A program made the translations under genes and the position numbers. The notes under the pieces were generated by a model. It saw only the letters and a program-made list of their open reading frames with translations, did not search any database and was not told where the DNA came from. From Bacillota bacterium (lineage in GTDB: Bacteria; Bacillota; Desulfitobacteriia; Desulfitobacteriales; JAJXUE01), in NCBI GenBank assembly GCA_021786555.1, contig JAJYNB010000108.1:1-43347 (forward strand): a stretch of 43,347 bases of DNA. Reading direction: 5' to 3'. Within the stretch, counting starts at the first letter, position 1. Each line of letters opens with the position of its first letter. Shown piece after piece: positions 5,587-42,053 of this stretch.

Positions 5587-5602
5587 TGGCATGGTATTTG
5601 CT
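5587..5602 (+). promoter_or_regulatory. sigma54 -24/-12 promoter candidate P2
   Basis: TGGCATggtatTTGCT, about 75 nt upstream of the ATG at 5676. Confidence 0.7.
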
Positions 5603-7275: not shown

Positions 7276-8703
7276 ATGAAAACATCCGCTGACTACCGTC
7301 AGCGAATCAAAGCGATGCGGCCTAACGTGTATATGGGCGGCAAGGTGGTAGGCCGGGACCATCCGGATTTTGCACCGGGCATCAACACTTTGGCCTTGAC
7401 CTATGACCTGGTTGACTCACCCGAATACGCTGACCTGTTAACGGCCAAGTCCCATCTCACAGGCGAGAAAATAAACCGCTTTACCCATATACACCAGTCG
7501 GCCGATGATTTGCTGAAAAAACAGGAGCTAACCCGCCATTTGTGTTTGAAGTGCGGCCGCTGCATTCAACGCTGCATGGGAATAGACGCCATGAACGCCC
7601 TGTCGGTGGTGACCAAAGACACCGACGTGGCGAAAGGCACGGAATACCACCGGCGTTTCCTGGAGTATCTTAGATTCTTTCAGGAAAATGATTTGGTAGG
7701 AAACGCTGCCCAGACCGACGTGAAAGGGGACCGCAGTTTACGGCCCCATCAACAAGCTGATCCGGACCTCTACCTCAGGGTGGTACAGAGGAGACAGGAC
7801 GGCATCGTGGTGCGAGGGGCCAAGGCCCATAATTCCATTGCGGCTTACGCCGACGAATTACTGGTTATCCCTACCAGGGCCATGACCAAGGAAGAAGGGG
7901 ACTGGGCTGTAGCCTTTGCGATTCAGGCTGACGTCCCCGGAGTTAAACTGATCAGCCTGCCCCACATCCACCGCAAGCGTAAAGAACTCAAGGCTCCCAT
8001 CGAGGACTACGGCACTATGCATGCCTTTACAGTGTTTGATGACGTCTTTGTTCCCTGGGAGCGGGTGTTTATGGACGGTGAGACCGAATTTGCCGGCCAA
8101 CTTGCATCCCTGTTTGCCACCTTCCACCGCCACAGCTATACTGGGTGCAAGCCCGCCATGTCCGACATCTTTCTGGGCGCTGCCGCTCTGGTGGCCGAGT
8201 ATAACGGAGTAGGCAAAGCCTCCCACGTACGGGACAAACTGGCCGACCTGATTGCGGTTGGAGAGCTGGTATACGGCGCAGGAATAGCCGCCTCAGTCAA
8301 GGGGACACGCTCCGCTTCCGGTACTTATATGCCTGATGTTGTGTTCACCAACGTCGGCCGCTATCACGCCGGGGTCAACATCTATCACGAATTTGAAACC
8401 CTGGCGGATGTGGCCGGGGGCCTGGCGGCTACTCTGCCTCTGGAAGAAGATTTTAACAACCCCGAGACCAGGGAACTGCTGGAAAAATACATCATGCGCA
8501 AGGCCGACGTCCCGGCAGAATACCAGCACCGCTTGTACCGTCTGATAGAAAATCTCATAGCCTCCTCCACCGGCGCTGCCACTGGGATCAGCGGTATCCA
8601 CGGCGGAGGTTCCCCTGTGATGGAGAAGATTGCCATCATGGGCAAATATGACCTCGAAGCACGCAAACGGGTCATCAAATACCTGGCCGGCATACCGGAG
8701 TAG
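7276..8703 (+). CDS. 4-hydroxybutyryl-CoA dehydratase / vinylacetyl-CoA isomerase family (AbfD-like) Fe-S flavoenzyme
   Basis: CIQRC (Cys96/Cys100) and FHRHSYTGC (His284/Cys291) match the spacing of the AbfD cluster ligands C99, C103, H292, C299 as I recall them. 475 aa. Confidence 0.75.
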   Translation: MKTSADYRQRIKAMRPNVYMGGKVVGRDHPDFAPGINTLALTYDLVDSPEYADLLTAKSHLTGEKINRFTHIHQSADDLLKKQELTRHLCLKCGRCIQRCMGIDAMNALSVVTKDTDVAKGTEYHRRFLEYLRFFQENDLVGNAAQTDVKGDRSLRPHQQADPDLYLRVVQRRQDGIVVRGAKAHNSIAAYADELLVIPTRAMTKEEGDWAVAFAIQADVPGVKLISLPHIHRKRKELKAPIEDYGTMHAFTVFDDVFVPWERVFMDGETEFAGQLASLFATFHRHSYTGCKPAMSDIFLGAAALVAEYNGVGKASHVRDKLADLIAVGELVYGAGIAASVKGTRSASGTYMPDVVFTNVGRYHAGVNIYHEFETLADVAGGLAATLPLEEDFNNPETRELLEKYIMRKADVPAEYQHRLYRLIENLIASSTGAATGISGIHGGGSPVMEKIAIMGKYDLEARKRVIKYLAGIPE

Positions 8704-8798
8704 TAACAGAGAGTAAGACAGCTGGTAAGAGGCAGCAAGTCCGTCCAGGAATAGTATTCAGAAAATTCATATTAGTCAATCTAAAGGAGGGGTCATCC

Positions 8799-10160
8799 TT
8801 GGTTAACGACAATTTTTTAGGCCGGTTTGAGTTCGGTGAATACTGGAATCCCATGAATGAAACCATGCCGCGTGAGCAGTTGGAAAAGCTGCAGCTGGCC
8901 AAGCTGCAAAGAATCGTAAGTTATGCCTACGAAAAGAGTGCTTTTCACCGCCGAAAGTTTGAAGCAGCGGGATTTCATCCCGATCAACTTCACAGCCTGG
9001 CAGATTTGGACCGCATTCCCTTTACCACCAAAGATGAGTGGCTGGAGGAGCAAAAGCGTTATCCCATGTTCGGGGAAATGCTGACCGCACCACAGGAACT
9101 GGCAACGAGGTATCATGCCACTTCAGGGACATCGGGCAGGACGCCGCTCAGGGTGCTGGACGGGCGTAAGGATTGGCAGTGGGCGGCGGAGATGTGGGCC
9201 TACAGCCTTTATGCCTTTGGCATCCGCTCCCATGACATAGTCTATTACGCCTTCGGGTACGGTTCCTTCATCGGGTTCTGGGGGTCGCACTATGGGTCTG
9301 AAAAGATTGGCGCTCTGACCATAGCCAGCGGGGGGATGTCCACTGAGGCAAGGGTGAAACAGCTGATAGAACTGGGTGCAACCACTCTGTGTGCCACGCC
9401 CACCTATGTCCTGAGAATGGCCCAGGTGGCAAGAGACATGGGTATCGATGTTGCCAGGGAATCCAAGATTAACAAGGTTGTGGTAACCGGGGAACCTGGC
9501 GGCAACGTCCCGGCGACCAGAAAAATGATTGCCGAGAGTTGGGGCGCCGAGGTGTCGGACATTGTGGGAATGACCGAGTCTGGATCCTGCTTCGCTTTTG
9601 AATGCAGGCATCATCCGGGCGGGACGCACATCATGGAGGACCATGTACTGGAGGAAACCTTGGATCCGAAGACCGGTGAACGCCTGGGTTACGGTGAGCG
9701 CGGTGAAAGGATTTTCACTTCCTTTGGCAGGGGCTTCATACCGCTGATTCGTTTCCGCACGGGGGACTTGGTGGTTCGAGTTCCGGGCAGCACCTGCACC
9801 TGCGGCAGGACATGGGATATCTACCAGGGCGGCATTCTGGGCCGGGTGGATGATATGAAGTTAATCCGCGGCACCAATGTGTACCCCTCATCCATTGAGG
9901 CAGTTGTGAGAAAATTCGAAGAAGTGGACGAGTTCCAGATTGTGATAACCCGGGAGAACGGCATAATGGATGAAATTACGGTAGAAATTGAGCTTTCACG
10001 CGAAGCGGAAGAACGGTTCACTGTTGTGTCTGTGCAACTGGCCAAAGACCTGGCCGACGCCCACGAGAACCTGCGCTTCAACATCACACAGGCCGATTGC
10101 GGCTCGCTTCCCCGTTATGAATTAAAGGCACGCAGAATGAAAGACTTGAGGGGGATATAA
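8799..10160 (+). CDS. Phenylacetate-CoA ligase family (PaaK-type aryl-acetate-CoA ligase)
   Basis: N-terminus YWNPMNETMPREQLEKLQLAKLQRIV, P-loop-like TSGTSGRTP, 453 aa. TTG start follows RBS AAGGAGGGG. Confidence 0.8.
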   Translation: MVNDNFLGRFEFGEYWNPMNETMPREQLEKLQLAKLQRIVSYAYEKSAFHRRKFEAAGFHPDQLHSLADLDRIPFTTKDEWLEEQKRYPMFGEMLTAPQELATRYHATSGTSGRTPLRVLDGRKDWQWAAEMWAYSLYAFGIRSHDIVYYAFGYGSFIGFWGSHYGSEKIGALTIASGGMSTEARVKQLIELGATTLCATPTYVLRMAQVARDMGIDVARESKINKVVVTGEPGGNVPATRKMIAESWGAEVSDIVGMTESGSCFAFECRHHPGGTHIMEDHVLEETLDPKTGERLGYGERGERIFTSFGRGFIPLIRFRTGDLVVRVPGSTCTCGRTWDIYQGGILGRVDDMKLIRGTNVYPSSIEAVVRKFEEVDEFQIVITRENGIMDEITVEIELSREAEERFTVVSVQLAKDLADAHENLRFNITQADCGSLPRYELKARRMKDLRGI

Positions 10161-24837: not shown

Positions 24838-24853
24838 TGGCATAAGATTTGCT
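24838..24853 (+). promoter_or_regulatory. sigma54 -24/-12 promoter candidate P3
   Basis: TGGCATaagatTTGCT, about 43 nt upstream of the GTG at 24896. Confidence 0.7.
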
Positions 24854-28195: not shown

Positions 28196-28308
28196 AATAT
28201 GGCTTCACGCCCTACTTAGGGGGCTTGTCCCTTCAAAAACGGCCGCCTATTCATTGCATTGGTACTGCCAAATTTGCCTGCATCCGGGAAAGAGAAGGTG
28301 ATGATAAG

Positions 28309-30108
28309 ATGGATAGCCGCGACCGTGGCAAGAAATCAGTGTCATCCGAACAGTACCTCCAGGCCTTAGGCGATATCGCCGGGATTATAAACCAGGGAAC
28401 CGATTTTCAGGCTGCGATTGCGTCAATCCTGGAAAAGGTAGACCAGTTTATGGGCTGTGAAAGCGGCGGCATATTATTATACGATGAACACCGGCAAGAA
28501 CTGGTTTTGCAGGAGCCGTCTTTCGGCAGTCAGGGAAGCCGGATTGAGCCCTACCGCCTACCGGTCAGACAGGGCCAGCAGTACAGCCCGGGTACCGCTG
28601 TGGAAGTATTTCTTAACCGCAAACCCTTTGTCTGCAACAGGCCGGCCGAGGACAAAAATGCCAGGCAGGATATAATTTCGCGTTTGGGTATTTATAACTT
28701 TGCCACCATTCCCTTGACTTTGAAAGACAAAGGCTTGGGAGTCTTACATGCAGTCAACAAACGCAATGGTCATTTTACCCGGGCCGATTTGTTATTCCTC
28801 AACACTTTGGGTACTTCCATAGCCATGATTTTGGAGATGGCCCGCCAGCAAAAGACCTTGAGACACTTGGTGCATATTCAAAATGCTTTGACAGAAAAGG
28901 TTTTGCAGGGTCAGGGCTTGCATGAAGTTGTGAACACCTTGACCGATGTTTTGCAGCGGCCCGTATTGCTGGAGGACCGCTTTTTTAAGACCTTACACTT
29001 TGCCAAGCCTCATGCCGGCAGTGATGAAGACGAGAATTTTCTCATGCCGAATCTCACGGATGAATTTTGGTTGTCCGGCATGGGCAGAACCTATTACAGG
29101 GAAATGATCAAGAGCAAAAAACCGGTCAGGCTGCCGGCTCTGCAGGAAATCGGCAGTCCTTATCCGCGCCTGGTTGCGCCTATTGTGGTGGAGGAAGAAA
29201 TATTCGGCTACCTCTCCGTAGGCTGCGTGCACGACGAAGTGGAGAGTTTTGAAATTGCCGCAGTTACTCATGCAGCGACGATTTGTTCGGTGGAATTTGT
29301 CAAGCAGTTGATTGCCTTGAAAGCGGAGAACCGGGTAAAGGGAGATTTGATCAGGGATCTTCTGACCAACCGCCTGCCAATGAGCGACATTCTGGAACGG
29401 GCTTCAATCATGGGGTACGATTTGACGCGTCCTTGTCGGGTGATGGTCCTAAACGCAGGGGAGAAGCCAAGGCCCGATTTGTTGCGGAAATTGTACGAAG
29501 TGGCGTGCGGCTTCGTAAATGCCCGAAATCCGCACACCATGGTGCTCACCCTTGACGGCGCGGTTGTGGTCTTGACTTACATGGAAGGTCTGGGCAGCGG
29601 GCCTTTTCTCCCTTATCTGCCGTTAGCCGAGAATTTGCTGCAAAACTGTGAAGAACTGTTAGGAGTAAAAGTTCAGATTGGCATGGGGCGGGTCGTATCA
29701 GAACCTGGTCAGATAAATCAATCCTACCAGGAAGCATTATTCGCTTTACGGGCCCTGCCTCAGTTTGCTGCCAAGAAGAACATTCTGAGTTTTGAGGACA
29801 TGGGGATTTTCCGTCTCCTTTCCAAAGCACGGGAAAAGGATGAACTGGTTGATTTCGCCCAAGAACTGCTGCGGCCGCTCTTAGACTATGACCAGGAAAA
29901 TAATACTTTTCTGCTCCAGTCCCTGCAAGCTTATTTGGACTGCAACTGCAGTGTCCAAAAAACTGCCCAGAAGTCGTATTTACACCCTAATACTTTGCTG
30001 TACCGTCTAAGGAGAATTCAAGAAATAACCGGATTTAACTTAAACGACACGGAAGACCGCTTAAACCTGCAAATCGCCATCAGGGTTTTCCGATTTTATG
30101 CCTCCTGA
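28309..30108 (+). CDS. GAF-domain / PucR (CdaR)-family transcriptional regulator
   Basis: N-terminal GAF-like region (GVLHAVNKRNGHFTRADLLFLNTLG). C-terminal PucR-type HTH (QKTAQKSYLHPNTLLYRLRRIQEITG). The ATG at 28309 follows RBS GAAGGTGA. Confidence 0.8.
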   Translation: MDSRDRGKKSVSSEQYLQALGDIAGIINQGTDFQAAIASILEKVDQFMGCESGGILLYDEHRQELVLQEPSFGSQGSRIEPYRLPVRQGQQYSPGTAVEVFLNRKPFVCNRPAEDKNARQDIISRLGIYNFATIPLTLKDKGLGVLHAVNKRNGHFTRADLLFLNTLGTSIAMILEMARQQKTLRHLVHIQNALTEKVLQGQGLHEVVNTLTDVLQRPVLLEDRFFKTLHFAKPHAGSDEDENFLMPNLTDEFWLSGMGRTYYREMIKSKKPVRLPALQEIGSPYPRLVAPIVVEEEIFGYLSVGCVHDEVESFEIAAVTHAATICSVEFVKQLIALKAENRVKGDLIRDLLTNRLPMSDILERASIMGYDLTRPCRVMVLNAGEKPRPDLLRKLYEVACGFVNARNPHTMVLTLDGAVVVLTYMEGLGSGPFLPYLPLAENLLQNCEELLGVKVQIGMGRVVSEPGQINQSYQEALFALRALPQFAAKKNILSFEDMGIFRLLSKAREKDELVDFAQELLRPLLDYDQENNTFLLQSLQAYLDCNCSVQKTAQKSYLHPNTLLYRLRRIQEITGFNLNDTEDRLNLQIAIRVFRFYAS

Positions 30109-30137: not shown

Positions 30138-30158
30138 AGCCGGCTCAGCCGGCTTTTT
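30138..30158 (+). terminator. Intrinsic terminator
   Basis: agccggc-tca-gccggct followed by TTTTT. Confidence 0.8.
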
Positions 30159-30311
30159 CCGTTTGGGCCGGTTTAGGAGCAACTGGTTGGTTTATCAAAC
30201 CGTTTGGCTTGGGTTTCAGATATTTGCACAAATAATCAGGGTGGTTTTTGTAAGAAACATCTGTATAAAGCAGGGCCTGAAGCGTTTAGAATAGCCATAA
30301 TCAGAATATTC
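30159..30311 (+). promoter_or_regulatory. Promoter/operator region A (colinear with region B at 39632-39765)
   Basis: CCGTTTGG repeats at 30159 and 30200, TTTGCA at 30223, a -10-like TAGAAT at 30287, and the palindrome GAATATTC at 30304. Confidence 0.5.
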
Positions 30312-30436
30312 AGAATAAAATTAGAAGATTTTTCATGGGAAGGGGGGCAGGGCAAGGTTTCATTGCCAAACCGGGGATGCTCATAAGGAGAAGTTTGTCG
30401 GTAAAAACAAGAGACCGTGAAAGAGGGGGAAAAGGA

Positions 30437-31678
30437 TTGAGAACCTGGCGTTTTTCGCGCGGCTTGTCATTTGTTATGATCCTAGTGTTCTTGCTGGTAT
30501 TAGTCTTAAGCGGTTGTGGAACAACCGGAGGAACGAGTGCAAAATCGGGCTCCTCCGGTCTGACAATCAAGGTAGGTATTATTGACACCTATACCGGACC
30601 GCCCACCGCCTACACCCAGGATGCCTTGGACGGATTCAAGCTTGCTGTTAACGACATTGCCAAAGAGGGAGGTCCAAAAATTGAATATGTAACCCGCGAT
30701 GACCAATATAAGGTAGACCAGGCCTTAAGCTGGGCCAAAGAACTGGTGATGAATGAAAAAGTAGACGTACTGGCCGGGACCATCAACAGTGCGGTATCCT
30801 TGGCAGTATCCCAATACGCCAAGCAGAACAAGATTCCCTTTATCAACTGGGGCGCTCTCAGTGATGAAATTACCGGCGCCAAGGGACATCGCTACGTTTT
30901 CAGTACGCCGCCTAATACTGCAATGATTGCCAAGACAGGGGCAATTCAAATTTCCCAGCTGCCTTATACCAAGTTTTGGCTGGCAGGCAGTGATTACGAG
31001 TATGGCCACCTGGTTGTCAGTGATTTTTGGACTGACCTTCAGAAGCTTAAGCCAGGGGTACAAAAATTGGGTGAAACCTGGTGGAAGATTGGTGAACCGG
31101 ATTTTACACCCTACCTGACCGCAATCAGGGCGGCAAAGCCCGATGCCGTAATTGTAGGCGCCGGTGCAGCCGACATTATTCCTTTCATGAAAGCTTTAAA
31201 AGCGACAGGTTTGTCGAAGCAAATACCTGTTTGGATACCCCAGTCGATTGATGCAGGCACATTAAGAGCCTTGGGCAATGATCAGCCGGAAGGTGTTTTG
31301 GGCACGAATCAGTATTTTTATTACTACCCCGATACAGCCGCAAACAAACAGTTCGAACAAGAGTTTAAGCAAGCCACAAACCGTGAACCGGGTTTTGCCG
31401 GTTTGTATGGCTATATGGCTGGAAAATATCTCGGGGCTGCCATTCAAAAAGCCGGCAGCACTGACCGGGAAAAAATCGTGGACGCGCTGGAAGGGCTGAC
31501 TCTTGATACACCGGTCGGCCAACTTACGATGCGAAAAGAAGACCACCAATCACTCGATCCCCTGTTCTACGGCAAAACCCCCGGCACAGGCGTGGTCGCC
31601 AACGGCCTTGTCCAGTTGTCCCCTGACAAGGTAATGCCTTCGGTTGAAGACGTAATGAATGCAAGAGCCAAAAAGTAG
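30437..31678 (+). CDS. ABC transporter substrate-binding lipoprotein (Leu/Ile/Val-binding-protein family), system 2
   Basis: Signal peptide with lipobox LSGC. The TTG start at 30437 follows RBS GAGGGGGA; the ORF track start at 30335 would add a non-signal extension. Confidence 0.8.
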   Translation: MRTWRFSRGLSFVMILVFLLVLVLSGCGTTGGTSAKSGSSGLTIKVGIIDTYTGPPTAYTQDALDGFKLAVNDIAKEGGPKIEYVTRDDQYKVDQALSWAKELVMNEKVDVLAGTINSAVSLAVSQYAKQNKIPFINWGALSDEITGAKGHRYVFSTPPNTAMIAKTGAIQISQLPYTKFWLAGSDYEYGHLVVSDFWTDLQKLKPGVQKLGETWWKIGEPDFTPYLTAIRAAKPDAVIVGAGAADIIPFMKALKATGLSKQIPVWIPQSIDAGTLRALGNDQPEGVLGTNQYFYYYPDTAANKQFEQEFKQATNREPGFAGLYGYMAGKYLGAAIQKAGSTDREKIVDALEGLTLDTPVGQLTMRKEDHQSLDPLFYGKTPGTGVVANGLVQLSPDKVMPSVEDVMNARAKK

Positions 31679-39578: not shown

Positions 39579-39631
39579 GACTTGGTGCAGAGAGTGACAG
39601 GAAGTTAGATAATTCGGGCCGCCATAAAGAA

Positions 39632-39765
39632 CCGTTTAGGCTGAAAAGGTCAACCGTTTGGGTTTGGTTTTGTAGGTTTGCAACAAACCAGCGCTGATTA
39701 TTCGTTGATTAATCCATATACAAAAGGAAAGCGCACTGGCTAGAATGTAAATAGGCTGAATATTC
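39632..39765 (+). promoter_or_regulatory. Promoter/operator region B (colinear with region A at 30159-30311)
   Basis: CCGTTTAGG at 39632, CCGTTTGG at 39654, TTTGCA at 39677, TAGAAT at 39741 and GAATATTC at 39758. The anchor spacings are identical to region A. Confidence 0.5.
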
Positions 39766-39791: not shown

Positions 39792-40685
39792 ATGTCGCGT
39801 CACAAGGTGGTGATTTCCCTGCCGGAAGCCGCCGCGATGATAAAGGATGGAGACCGGGTGGGTATCGGTGGCTTTGTCACCACCAACAAGCCCTTGGGGA
39901 TACTGCGAGAGATTATGCGCCTGCGGCGACAGGATTTGACAGTTGTTGCACCACCCTCAAGCATGGAAGTTGACTTACTTCTGGGGCTGGGAATGGTTAG
40001 GAAACTGATAACCCCATACCTGGGTGCTGAGGCTATCGCACCCCTCGGGCCTTTTCACAGCGGTTGGGCCGGAAAACACTTTGCGATTGAAGAGACAGAC
40101 CTGGGTACCCTGGTGGCGGGACTGCGCGCATATGCCCTGGCGCTGCCCTTTATGCCCACCCGAGGTATAGTGGGCACGTCGATTGCCAGCCTGAATCCAA
40201 CTTTGCGCCCTGTAGAAGATCCTTTTGGCGGTCCGCCCTTAATCGCAGTGCCGCCACTGGAAATGGATGTAGTCCTGATCCACGCCAGCCAAGCGGACTG
40301 TTACGGCAACGTACAGCACTTGGGTGCGGTGTTTCTCGACCCGTTGCTGGCCCAGGCCGGCAAAAAAGTCATCGTCCAGGTGGAAAAAATTGTTTCCTCG
40401 GAAGAAATCCGCCGCAACCCGGGAAATACCACCCTTGCCTGTGAGTTTGTTGATGCCGTGGTCCTGGCGCCCTACGGCGCCCATCCCATGGCGTCTCAAA
40501 ACTACTACCGGGTAGATGCAGACTTTCTCAACGAGTATGTGCGGGTGGCCAAGGCCTGTGTCAAAGGTCAGCCTGAGCAGTTTGAGGAATTTGTGGCCAG
40601 ATACATCGATGCTCCCGCCGGGCTTAGCGAGTACCTGGAGAGGGTTGGCCTGGAAAGACTATTTGCCTTGGGGGAGGGAGCTTAA
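39792..40685 (+). CDS. Family I CoA-transferase subunit A (glutaconate CoA-transferase GctA-like)
   Basis: N-terminus SLPEAAAMIKDGDRVGIGGF, 297 aa, followed by a B subunit. The ATG at 39792 follows RBS GAGAGGAG. Confidence 0.75.
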   Translation: MSRHKVVISLPEAAAMIKDGDRVGIGGFVTTNKPLGILREIMRLRRQDLTVVAPPSSMEVDLLLGLGMVRKLITPYLGAEAIAPLGPFHSGWAGKHFAIEETDLGTLVAGLRAYALALPFMPTRGIVGTSIASLNPTLRPVEDPFGGPPLIAVPPLEMDVVLIHASQADCYGNVQHLGAVFLDPLLAQAGKKVIVQVEKIVSSEEIRRNPGNTTLACEFVDAVVLAPYGAHPMASQNYYRVDADFLNEYVRVAKACVKGQPEQFEEFVARYIDAPAGLSEYLERVGLERLFALGEGA

Positions 40686-41467: not shown

Positions 41468-41543
41468 GGCAGATTTCCATACCAGCTTCGGATGCAAGCA
41501 TGAAAAACGCTAGTCATGGGTCGGCAGGGGCAGTCGGGTGAAT

Positions 41544-41569
41544 GTGTCATGGGGACGCGTACACTGACA
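41544..41569. repeat. Degenerate solo copy of the MITE terminal repeat
   Basis: gtgtcatggggacgcgtacactgaca versus gtgtcagggggacgggtacactgaca: 24/26 identical. Confidence 0.6.
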
Positions 41570-41584
41570 GTAACTTTAGAGAGT

Positions 41585-41699
41585 GTGTGTCAGGGGGACG
41601 GGTACACTGACACTAGCTTAACCGAGTGGGAAGAGGGACTGCAGTCAGTGAAACGGTAAGAAAGGTTGGGCTGTCAATGTACCTGTCCCCCTGACACTA
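41585..41699. repeat. MITE-like element copy 1 (115 nt, 26-bp terminal inverted repeats)
   Basis: Left end gtgtcagggggacgggtacactgaca (41587-41612). Right end tgtcaatgtacctgtccccctgacac (41672-41697), which is 24/26 complementary to the left end. No coding capacity. Confidence 0.8.
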
Positions 41700-41938
41700 T
41701 TTGACCCGTGCTTTGACAAATCCGCCGCCAGCCGGGGTCCCCGCGAAATCTTTGCCCCAAATTGTGCTAGACGATTTCGTGGGGTGGACGAGGGGATTCC
41801 TTGGCTGACGGTCAGCACGGCGGCTTGGACTACCAGAACCGGGAAAAATTTTGCTCCGGAAACATTCAGCCTCCCTGAAGCAGCTAAATCTTTCGGGTAA
41901 CGTTTTTCATAATAGTTGATGCTGCCACAGGTTCATTG

Positions 41939-42053
41939 GTGTGTCAGGGGGACGGGTACACTGACACTAGCTTAACCGAGTGGGAAGAGGGACTGCAGTC
42001 AGTGAAACGGTGAGAAAGGTTGGGCTGTCAATGTACCTGTCCCCCTGACACTA
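41939..42053. repeat. MITE-like element copy 2 (115 nt), direct orientation
   Basis: 114/115 identical to copy 1, with a single A/G difference in aaacggtRagaaagg. Confidence 0.8.

Follow-up and report, generated by a model that had tools for sequence, protein, structure and literature searches.

The 43,347-nucleotide (nt) stretch of contig JAJYNB010000108.1 analysed here, referred to as the window, contains two intergenic regions which are copies of a single regulated promoter design. Region A, beginning at 30159, lies directly behind the gene of a PucR-type regulator and precedes an operon of transporter and iorAB genes, while region B, beginning at 39632, precedes the genes of a CoA-transferase. 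Both are members of a conserved family of predicted promoters in loci of the Desulfitobacteriaceae. It is suspected, with moderate confidence and on the strength of the sequences, that A and B are modular regulated promoters of the sigma-A type, at which the PucR-type protein of the cluster would activate from upstream and a repressor, for which CodY is the best fit, would act at the start site.

An original prediction made from the window alone had described the two regions as colinear, with four anchors in common: the box CCGTTTGG, TTTGCA, a −10-like TAGAAT and the perfect palindrome GAATATTC. Reading of the window and pattern searches found all four in A and in B as described, at offsets of 0, +23, +87 and +104. 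The identities between A and B were also confirmed, with 22/30 in the first block, 16/57 (28%) in the middle and 18/25 in the last, and additional copies of the upstream box are present in A (CCGTTTGGG at 30159, 41 nt upstream) and in B (CCGTTTAGG at 39632, 22 nt upstream). Two composite patterns, one joining CCGTTTGG to TTTGCA and the other joining TAGAAT to GAATATTC, matched at A and B only. Taken singly the words are within chance expectation in the window (CCGTTTRG with 6 matches against 3.5 expected, GAATATTC with 2 against 0.45). An ungapped comparison of A with B along a single diagonal gives four exact runs of 6 nt or more, 30 bases in total, a score that none of 2000 shuffles reached (mean 8–9, maximum 22); the best of the other 77 real intergenic pairs in the window, out of 78 pairs in all, scored 18. 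This colinearity and the presence of the same words in related loci bear out the view of A and B as two copies of one regulated promoter design.

To describe the family in related loci (L002, L003 and so on below), a composite pattern was used consisting of TATACA (at most one mismatch), N16–18, TANNAT, N0–18 and CWGAAWATT (at most one mismatch). Within 404 kb, both strands included, eight distinct promoters were found, against 0.47 expected from composition-preserving block shuffles. All eight matches are intergenic and on the gene strand, namely A, B, two in L002 and one each in L003, L007, L012 and L015. Analysis of k-mer enrichment in promoters picked by position returned TATACA in 8 of 11 (p about 6e-11), along with CAGAAAAT, CCGTTTG and ACCGTT. 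When five CoA-transferase (B-type) promoters were aligned together with A, the only invariant columns were AC.GTT, the −48/−16 words described below, TATA.A, TA.A.T and C.GAA.ATT; the results of these three independent approaches are concordant.

With positions counted from the first base of the −35 hexamer, TATACA lies at 0 and is exact in 11 of 12 anchored promoters, and a −10 hexamer (TAnnAT) follows after a spacer of 17–18 nt in all composite promoters. The start-site word CWGAAWATT stands 9 nt after the −10 in five promoters and 5–17 nt after it in others. Upstream, a box with the consensus ACCGTT(T/C)RG occurs one to three times per promoter, at about −64, −85 and −105. The ACCGTT word is found at −64/−65 in A, B, L002b, L007b and L017 and at −84 to −86 in B (its second copy), L002a and L003, its place in L012 being taken by the overlapping CCGTTTGG box, while the CCGTTTGG box at −105 belongs to region A. 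The steps of 20–22 nt between ACCGTT positions equal two helical turns, which places the boxes on the same face of the DNA. Nearer the −35, TTYGT..GA is found at −16/−17 in 9 of 12 promoters, and the B class carries TTCGTWGAT-like words at −48 and −16, 32 nt apart.

These comparisons support some of the anchors and not others. The CCGTTTGG box is real, being conserved and helically phased in related loci, and TAGAAT as the −10 hexamer is borne out by its place 17–18 nt behind the −35-like hexamer and by the composite scan. The position of TTTGCA is not conserved: the full word is common only to the two window promoters, and TTGCA stands at −39/−40 in the window only, at −53 in two orthologues (14 nt further upstream, L002b and L007b), and is absent there in others. 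The perfect palindrome GAATATTC proved specific to the window, as four of five B-type promoters end in ...ATTA or ...ATTT; its position is taken by GAAAATTA in L002b, L007b and L017 and by GAATATTT in L015. TATACA, the strongest signal, had been overlooked because region A has TATAAA.

The design follows the regulator gene. A promoter of this type lies directly downstream of an orthologue of the regulator in L002, L007 and L012, with a weaker version in L011, and the genes behind the regulator differ: CoA-transferase A and B in L002, a PaaK-like ligase in L007, a family-III CoA-transferase in L011 and a tripartite ATP-independent periplasmic (TRAP) transporter in L012. Orthologues of the CoA-transferase (73–82% identity) yielded further copies of region B in L015, L017 and L007. 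All elements are absent upstream of CoA-transferase homologues with 58–63% identity (L020–L022) and upstream of the 65% identical binding-protein homologue (L023), and the GAF-PucR regulator is not encoded in these four loci within the sequence available. The L020–L022 loci lose all elements together and are therefore uninformative between CodY and a dedicated regulator. An orthologue of region A was not found, since the nearest binding-protein homologue, that of L023, lies in an unrelated context; region A thus appears so far to be unique to this genome.

The regulator gene occupies 28309–30108 on the + strand (ATG at 28309; 599 amino acids, P0001) and, as described previously, ends just upstream of region A. 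Its product carries the Pfam domains GAF_2, GGDEF_2 and HTH_30. The PucR-type helix-turn-helix (HTH) domain (HTH_30, PF13556, E = 3.1e-24) is a full-length profile match at residues 582–640 of the open reading frame (ORF), with the GGDEF-like domain (PF17853, E = 3.6e-16) ahead of it; these two domains are named as the hallmarks of the PucR family (PMC13599513). The N-terminal purine-catabolism domain of PucR (PF07905) was not found by Pfam search at E <= 0.001, although it is present in a distant homologue (P0015), and the N-terminal sensor is a GAF domain, so the protein is a GAF-sensor variant of the family. It is also rare, with only five close orthologues (55–73% identity) among 5.8 billion protein clusters, and its relatives come from Desulfosporosinus, Paradesulfitobacterium and Desulfitobacteriaceae metagenome bins. 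All six orthologues have almost the same HTH segment, KTAQKSYLHPNTLLYRLRRIQEI, as would be expected of proteins with a conserved DNA target. As the design tracks the regulator orthologues, the proposal that the neighbouring PucR-type protein is the binder holds for some of the elements, for which it is the natural candidate; for the start-site element it is doubtful.

At the start site the conserved unit is a 15-mer, AATAnnCWGAAWATT, which begins 8 nt upstream of GAATATTC and is followed by a weaker nnGAnnA. Since it usually starts 3 nt after the −10, the 15-mer spans the site where transcription is predicted to begin. Over 12 aligned sites it matches the CodY consensus AATTTTCWGAAAATT at 10–13 of 15 positions (2–5 mismatches, with 4 each in A and B), and its right arm CWGAAWATT is nearly invariant. 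The sole three matches to the CodY consensus with two or fewer mismatches in ~200 kb fall at these promoters, as do ~20 of the 27 best 24-nt double-site matches. A second 15-mer, overlapping the first by 6 nt and thus lying 9 nt downstream of it, has 3–6 mismatches in the promoters with 7 or fewer mismatches over the 24-mer, region A included (4 + 4). CodY operators typically consist of two 15-mers overlapping by 6 nt and are functional with up to 5 mismatches; CodY represses from sites at or after the start, and its sites can overlap those of the PucR-family activator PutR (PMC10415144). The degree of match, the near-invariant right arm and the position at or just after the predicted start are shared with the CodY operators of Firmicutes, and the overlapping second copy seen in several promoters may be a further likeness. 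The CodY protein has been detected in Desulfitobacterium hafniense (PMC9888536). The original prediction had taken the start-site sequence for an operator of the PucR-type protein, and a conserved element does lie at the predicted start, but its assignment is doubtful in view of the likeness to a CodY box and of the mostly activating role of PucR relatives. Going by sequence, CodY is put forward tentatively as the binder of this element, though with somewhat less than even confidence; the PucR-type protein itself is a possible but rather unlikely binder, and so, to a like degree, is some other protein.

The mechanism suspected from these observations is as follows. The non-consensus TATACA would be a weak −35 hexamer and would leave the promoter dependent on an activator; promoters that need an activator commonly combine such a hexamer with upstream words lying on the same side of the helix. 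The GAF/GGDEF-like/PucR-HTH protein would bind as an oligomer to the phased upstream elements, roughly from −100 to −45 from the start, and activation would follow when its GAF or GGDEF-like domain binds a metabolite of the pathway. The start-site element would be the operator of a repressor, separate from the activator site. By its sequence, its overlapping copy and its position a CodY box fits best, and this would set nutritional repression on top of specific induction. The upstream elements are assigned to the PucR-type activator from the co-occurrence of promoter and regulator, the conservation of the HTH, the joint loss of elements and the precedents within the family. What the sequences show are conservation, spacing, this co-occurrence and the resemblance to the CodY consensus; which protein binds which element, whether it activates or represses, with what effector and from which start sites are predictions.

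Several observations weigh against this interpretation. Region B has at least 8 mismatches to the 24-nt CodY double site. The left arm AATAnnC also departs from the AATTTTC of CodY, with A at position 4 in 10 of 12 sites, positions 5–6 variable and only AAT and the final C kept. None of the 12 promoters of the set lacks the element, and such universality within one small regulon differs from known CodY operators and is more typical of a dedicated than of a global regulator. On the activator side, no conserved dyad of 17–24 base pairs (bp) as in other PucR-type proteins stands out: a dyad-axis scan gave weak symmetry, the best of 260 axes (−35 and −4.5) scoring 51–53 of 120 pairs against a mean of 33 (standard deviation 6.5), or about three standard deviations above it. 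L007c, L011 and L015 have only a degenerate ACCGTT box or none. The invariance of TATACA is unusual for a merely weak −35, and the hexamer may itself be a protein-binding site. It should also be noted that four of the promoters are orthologous to B, so that the counts are not fully independent, and that all searched sequence was centred on this cluster and its relatives.

The main rival to a separate start-site repressor, a view close to that of the original prediction, makes the GAF/PucR-type regulator the binder of the start-site element as well as of the upstream boxes; it would shut the promoter, perhaps by looping, when inducer is absent and activate it when inducer is present. The start-site element is found at every promoter of the set at a near-fixed position (9 nt behind the −10 in five), co-occurs strictly with the other elements and vanishes with them in distant homologous loci. 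Words resembling GAWWATTC also occur upstream: GATTATTC is found at −21 in B and, in L003 and L007a, at −54, and L002b has GGATTTTC at −21. The copy at −21 in region B is separated from the one at the start site by 62 nt, close to six helical turns. Such a role has a parallel in the PucR of Bacillus subtilis, a dual activator and repressor (PMC13599513, PMC7652997), but all other characterised members of the family act solely as activators (PMC13599513). Moreover, the ACCGTT and TTYGTWGA words are unlike the start-site element, so that one HTH would need to recognise dissimilar sequences; the element stands alone at 8753–8768 in the window, and it is nearer to the CodY consensus than to any upstream word. 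Control by one protein in this manner is considered fairly unlikely. Its fullest form would be an AraC-like dual switch, in which one GAF-sensing PucR protein occupies four or five phased sites over ~150 bp (the ACCGTT boxes, the −48/−16 words, TATACA and the start-site element), looped shut without ligand and activating with it, the likeness to CodY being coincidental. This is judged unlikely, a shade more so than one-protein control in general; if true, it would for the first time provide a GAF-type PucR regulator of anaerobic auxin or aryl-acid catabolism with a defined DNA code and with an AraC-like dual-switch mechanism.

TATACA, TAGAAT and the start region might instead be core promoter elements of an alternative sigma factor or a special initiation region, and not transcription-factor sites, as TATACA is more invariant than a degenerate activator-dependent −35 is expected to be, keeps a fixed 17–18 nt to the −10 and mostly has the start-site element at a near-fixed distance behind. 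This is regarded as very improbable, since both hexamers are ordinary sigma-A variants (a simple sigma-70 scan calls B, with 9/12 matches), the distance from −10 to element ranges over 5–17 nt among promoters sharing the TATACA/−10 core, the element lies directly behind or 1 nt after a −10-like hexamer in L011 and at 8753, and L003 and L007a have a second copy of it upstream of the −35. Compared by eye with the consensus sequences of Bacillus, the promoters showed no apparent fit to sigma-B, D, E, F, G, H, K, W, X or M. Alternatively, one promoter may have been duplicated when the cluster was assembled, the words being functionless leftovers of shared ancestry. A and B do lie in one cluster that has been rearranged between species, with different genes behind the promoter in L002, L007, L011 and L012. 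Given that the 57 nt between the blocks are at the random level of 28% identity, that the blocks survive in orthologues whose proteins are only 55–82% identical and that the box positions keep their helical phase, the block-wise pattern points to selection and not to recent copying, and mere ancestry is held to be still less probable. The reading of TTTGCA as the −12 element of a sigma-54 promoter was rejected, although the window has genuine sigma-54 promoters (1203, 5587 and 24838) and an enhancer-binding-protein gene (8–1084). The GG–GC spacing is at least 14 nt in A and B where 12 is obligatory, the neighbouring regulator has no sigma-54 interaction domain, and a search of TGGCAC-N5-TTGCW type gave exact matches at those three positions and none at A or B; its likelihood is accordingly put at next to nothing.

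The preferred reading, a PucR-type activator upstream and a CodY-like site at the start, has a close likeness in the PgabTDP promoter of Corynebacterium glutamicum. There GabR binds as an octamer to two repeats between −87 and −23, in a site immediately upstream of the −35, and a site of the global regulator GlxR lies downstream of the start (PMC7652997). Both systems join a catabolic and transport operon to an adjoining PucR-family regulator gene, place activator sites, here putative ones, over ~60 bp just upstream of the −35 and have a separate site past the start, here a candidate, for nutritional repression by a global regulator (PMC7652997). If the present regulator is oligomeric as GabR is, several phased sites are to be expected. 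GabR differs in having neither GGDEF-like nor GAF domain and in binding two 21-bp inverted repeats; here the upstream words (ACCGTT, TTYGTWGA) look like phased direct words with no clear dyad, and the start-site element is CodY-like and not a GlxR/CRP box.

The putBCP operon of B. subtilis is, as proposed here, a Firmicute catabolic operon switched on by a PucR-family activator (PutR) and off by CodY (PMC10415144, PMC7652997). It therefore offers a precedent for these two regulator types at one promoter. At putBCP, CodY reportedly displaces the activator. Upstream of its promoter the sites for CodY and PutR overlap (PMC10415144), whereas here the CodY-like element lies at the predicted start, away from the boxes; PutR also binds a 17-bp inverted repeat. 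With the PucR regulon of B. subtilis the present system shares the C-terminal HTH family and the GGDEF-like domain, and also a non-palindromic box common to several operons, from which PucR activates or represses (PMC13599513, PMC7652997). The two differ in the GAF sensor found here, in the sequence of the box and in the pathway, which is that of anaerobic aromatic-acid and not of purine catabolism. The outcome of PucR binding is said to depend on the position of the box. The PucR box, reported as WWWCNTTGGTTAA, would have a TTGG core in common with CCGTTTGG, a likeness given here as a lead.

All features of the two regions are on the + strand. Region A is preceded by the intrinsic terminator hairpin of the regulator gene (30138–30154), whose T-run runs into the first CCGTTTGG copy. 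The distal boxes are CCGTTTGG at 30159–30166 (−105) and CGGTTTAG at 30169–30176 (−95). The main upstream box ACCGTTTGG (30199–30207) starts 65 nt upstream of the −35, with CCGTTTGG at 30200–30207 as offset 0, and overlaps an inverted repeat, GGTTT-ATC-AAACC (30189–30201). It is followed at 30214–30228 by TTTCAGATA with TTTGCA (30223–30228), the TTCAGA at −49 being common to L003 and L007a, and by the proximal TTYGTWGA-like TTTGTAAGA (30247–30255), which starts 17 nt upstream of the −35. The −35-like hexamer TATAAA (30264–30269; family consensus TATACA) and the −10 hexamer TAGAAT (30287–30292) are separated by 17 nt and give a predicted start near 30299. In the start-site element (30296–30319) the 15-mer CATAATCAGAATATT (30296–30310) overlaps a second 15-mer, AATATTCAGAATAAA (30305–30319), and the palindrome GAATATTC lies at 30304–30311. 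The rest of the leader (30320–30436) extends to the TTG start of the binding-protein gene at 30437, making ~138 nt from the predicted start.

Long leaders of 120–250 nt were observed at transporter-gene promoters (30312–30436 in the window, L002 3070–3178, L007 5800–6021 and L012 3110–3278), some with strong hairpins such as that at L007 5860–5930, and the leaders of the CoA-transferase promoters measure ~40 nt. The transporter operons may be under an additional layer of control at the RNA level. In an Rfam search no family reached its gathering score at any point of the window, the leaders and the 41.5–42.1 kb gap described below included.

In region B a distal box ACCGTTTAG (39631–39639) starts 86 nt upstream of the −35 hexamer and the main box ACCGTTTGG (39653–39661) 64 nt upstream, with CCGTTTGG at 39654–39661. 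The distal repeat TTTGTAGGT (39669–39677, −48) overlaps both TTTGCA (39677–39682) and an inverted repeat, GGTTTG-CAA-CAAACC (39675–39689), the whole feature spanning 39669–39689. The proximal repeat TTCGTTGAT (39701–39709) starts at −16, 32 nt after the distal one, and the same −48/−16 pair of words is present in four B-type promoters. TATACA (39717–39722) and TAGAAT (39741–39746) follow with an 18-nt spacer, the predicted start being near 39753, and the start-site element (39750–39765) consists of AATAGGCTGAATATT (39750–39764) and the palindrome GAATATTC (39758–39765).

A third, partial copy was found at 8753–8768 (+ strand), where AGTATTCAGAAAATT plus C lies directly behind a TAGTAT −10-like hexamer and 31 nt before a PaaK-like ligase gene at 8799. 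With 13/15 positions (2 mismatches) it is the best match to the CodY consensus in the window, and no TATACA hexamer or forward ACCGTT box accompanies it. A CAAACGG word, the reverse complement of CCGTTTG, was seen at 8664–8670, within the 3′ end of an HpaB/AbfD-like gene; as it lies ~63 nt upstream of the would-be −35 for the partial promoter at 8750, it may be due to chance or may be a reversed upstream box.

In L003 and L007a a pair of words, CCGTTTG...CAAACGG, was considered as an activator site and rejected, since the long hairpin that it forms, with a T-rich tract behind, is probably a terminator. The functional box there is instead ACCGTTCAG at −86 in L003 and ACCGGTCAG in L007a. Two remnants were also noted behind promoters of the family. 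At L007 13090–13193 a 34-residue ORF (MSRQKLVISLPEAAAMINDG...), the remaining 5′ end of a deleted CoA-transferase A gene, still stands behind a composite promoter with all its elements; in Desulfosporosinus BRH_c37 the mutase genes are now driven by this promoter. At L003 2890–3550 a complete composite promoter precedes a 175-residue ORF, between a sigma-54 activator gene and a zinc alcohol dehydrogenase gene; its 73% identity extends only to residues 235–400 of the regulator, marking it as a gene fragment. Upstream of the regulator genes at L007 9232–9290 and L012 1085–1108, CodY-like 24-mers lie 80–110 nt before the start codon, in L007 together with ACCGTTTA, which hints at autoregulation or shared repression; the corresponding region of the window (28196–28308) showed nothing convincing of the autoregulation type.

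The gene order of the cluster was taken from Pfam scans and the gene calls of the source contig (L014). Downstream of A are five genes of a leucine-isoleucine-valine (LIV)-type ATP-binding cassette (ABC) transporter, followed by iorA, iorB and genes for an octopine-dehydrogenase-like protein and a 3-hydroxyacyl-CoA dehydrogenase. Downstream of B lie the genes of CoA-transferase A (P0017, 297 amino acids, ATG at 39792) and B. Beyond the window there follow a B12-dependent mutase-like pair, succinyl-CoA-synthetase-like genes, hydantoinase A and B, a V4R protein and an ADP-forming acyl-CoA synthetase, and the upstream part of the window encodes xanthine-dehydrogenase-family enzymes, PaaK-like ligases and enoyl-CoA hydratases. 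In its gene content the present cluster resembles that for anaerobic indoleacetate breakdown (iaa), which includes a CoA ligase, a CoA-transferase, a B12 mutase and a binding protein (PMC8360864), and it is predicted from that content to be an anaerobic aromatic-acid catabolic cluster of the Desulfitobacteriaceae.

Three exact sigma-54-type promoters (TGGCAT-N5-TTGCT) were located at 1203–1218, 5587–5602 and 24838–24853, preceding xanthine-dehydrogenase-like, short-chain dehydrogenase/reductase (SDR)/hydratase and old yellow enzyme (OYE)-type reductase operons, and 1338–1353 was noted in addition. Long palindromes near 1140–1180 (TGTCTGAAAAACATACAACTGTATGTTTTTCAGACA) and 1318 (GTCTGATTTTTCAGAC) are the probable binding sites of the enhancer-binding protein encoded at 8–1084, and the cluster would thus be divided between sigma-54 and PucR-type control. 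A stretch of DNA at 41543–42053, in the 640-nt gap between CoA-transferase B and the mutase-like gene, contains two direct repeats of 115 nt (41585–41699 and 41939–42053, 99% identical), each flanked by 26-nt inverted arms GTGTCAGGGGGACGGGTACACTGACA and TGTCAATGTACCTGTCCCCCTGACAC, and a third, 43-nt copy of the left end (41543–41585). As orthologous loci have only 15–70 nt at this gap, it looks like an inserted element resembling a miniature inverted-repeat transposable element (MITE) or repetitive extragenic palindrome (REP).

Taken as a whole, the sequences make a well-supported regulon prediction, and the signature is real but fairly ordinary, the predicted arrangement of a local activator with a repressor site at the start being of a familiar type. 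Its consequences are local, namely better annotation of operons and regulon and possibly a metabolite-responsive promoter part for anaerobes, and no new regulatory principle is implied. How PucR-family proteins recognise DNA is so far poorly defined (PMC13599513), and the present elements provide a concrete cis-regulatory map for an uncharacterised GAF-type branch of that family. They predict a regulon for an anaerobic aromatic-acid pathway, possibly indoleacetate-like, in the Desulfitobacteriaceae and suggest that specific induction of this pathway may be layered with nutritional repression of the CodY type.

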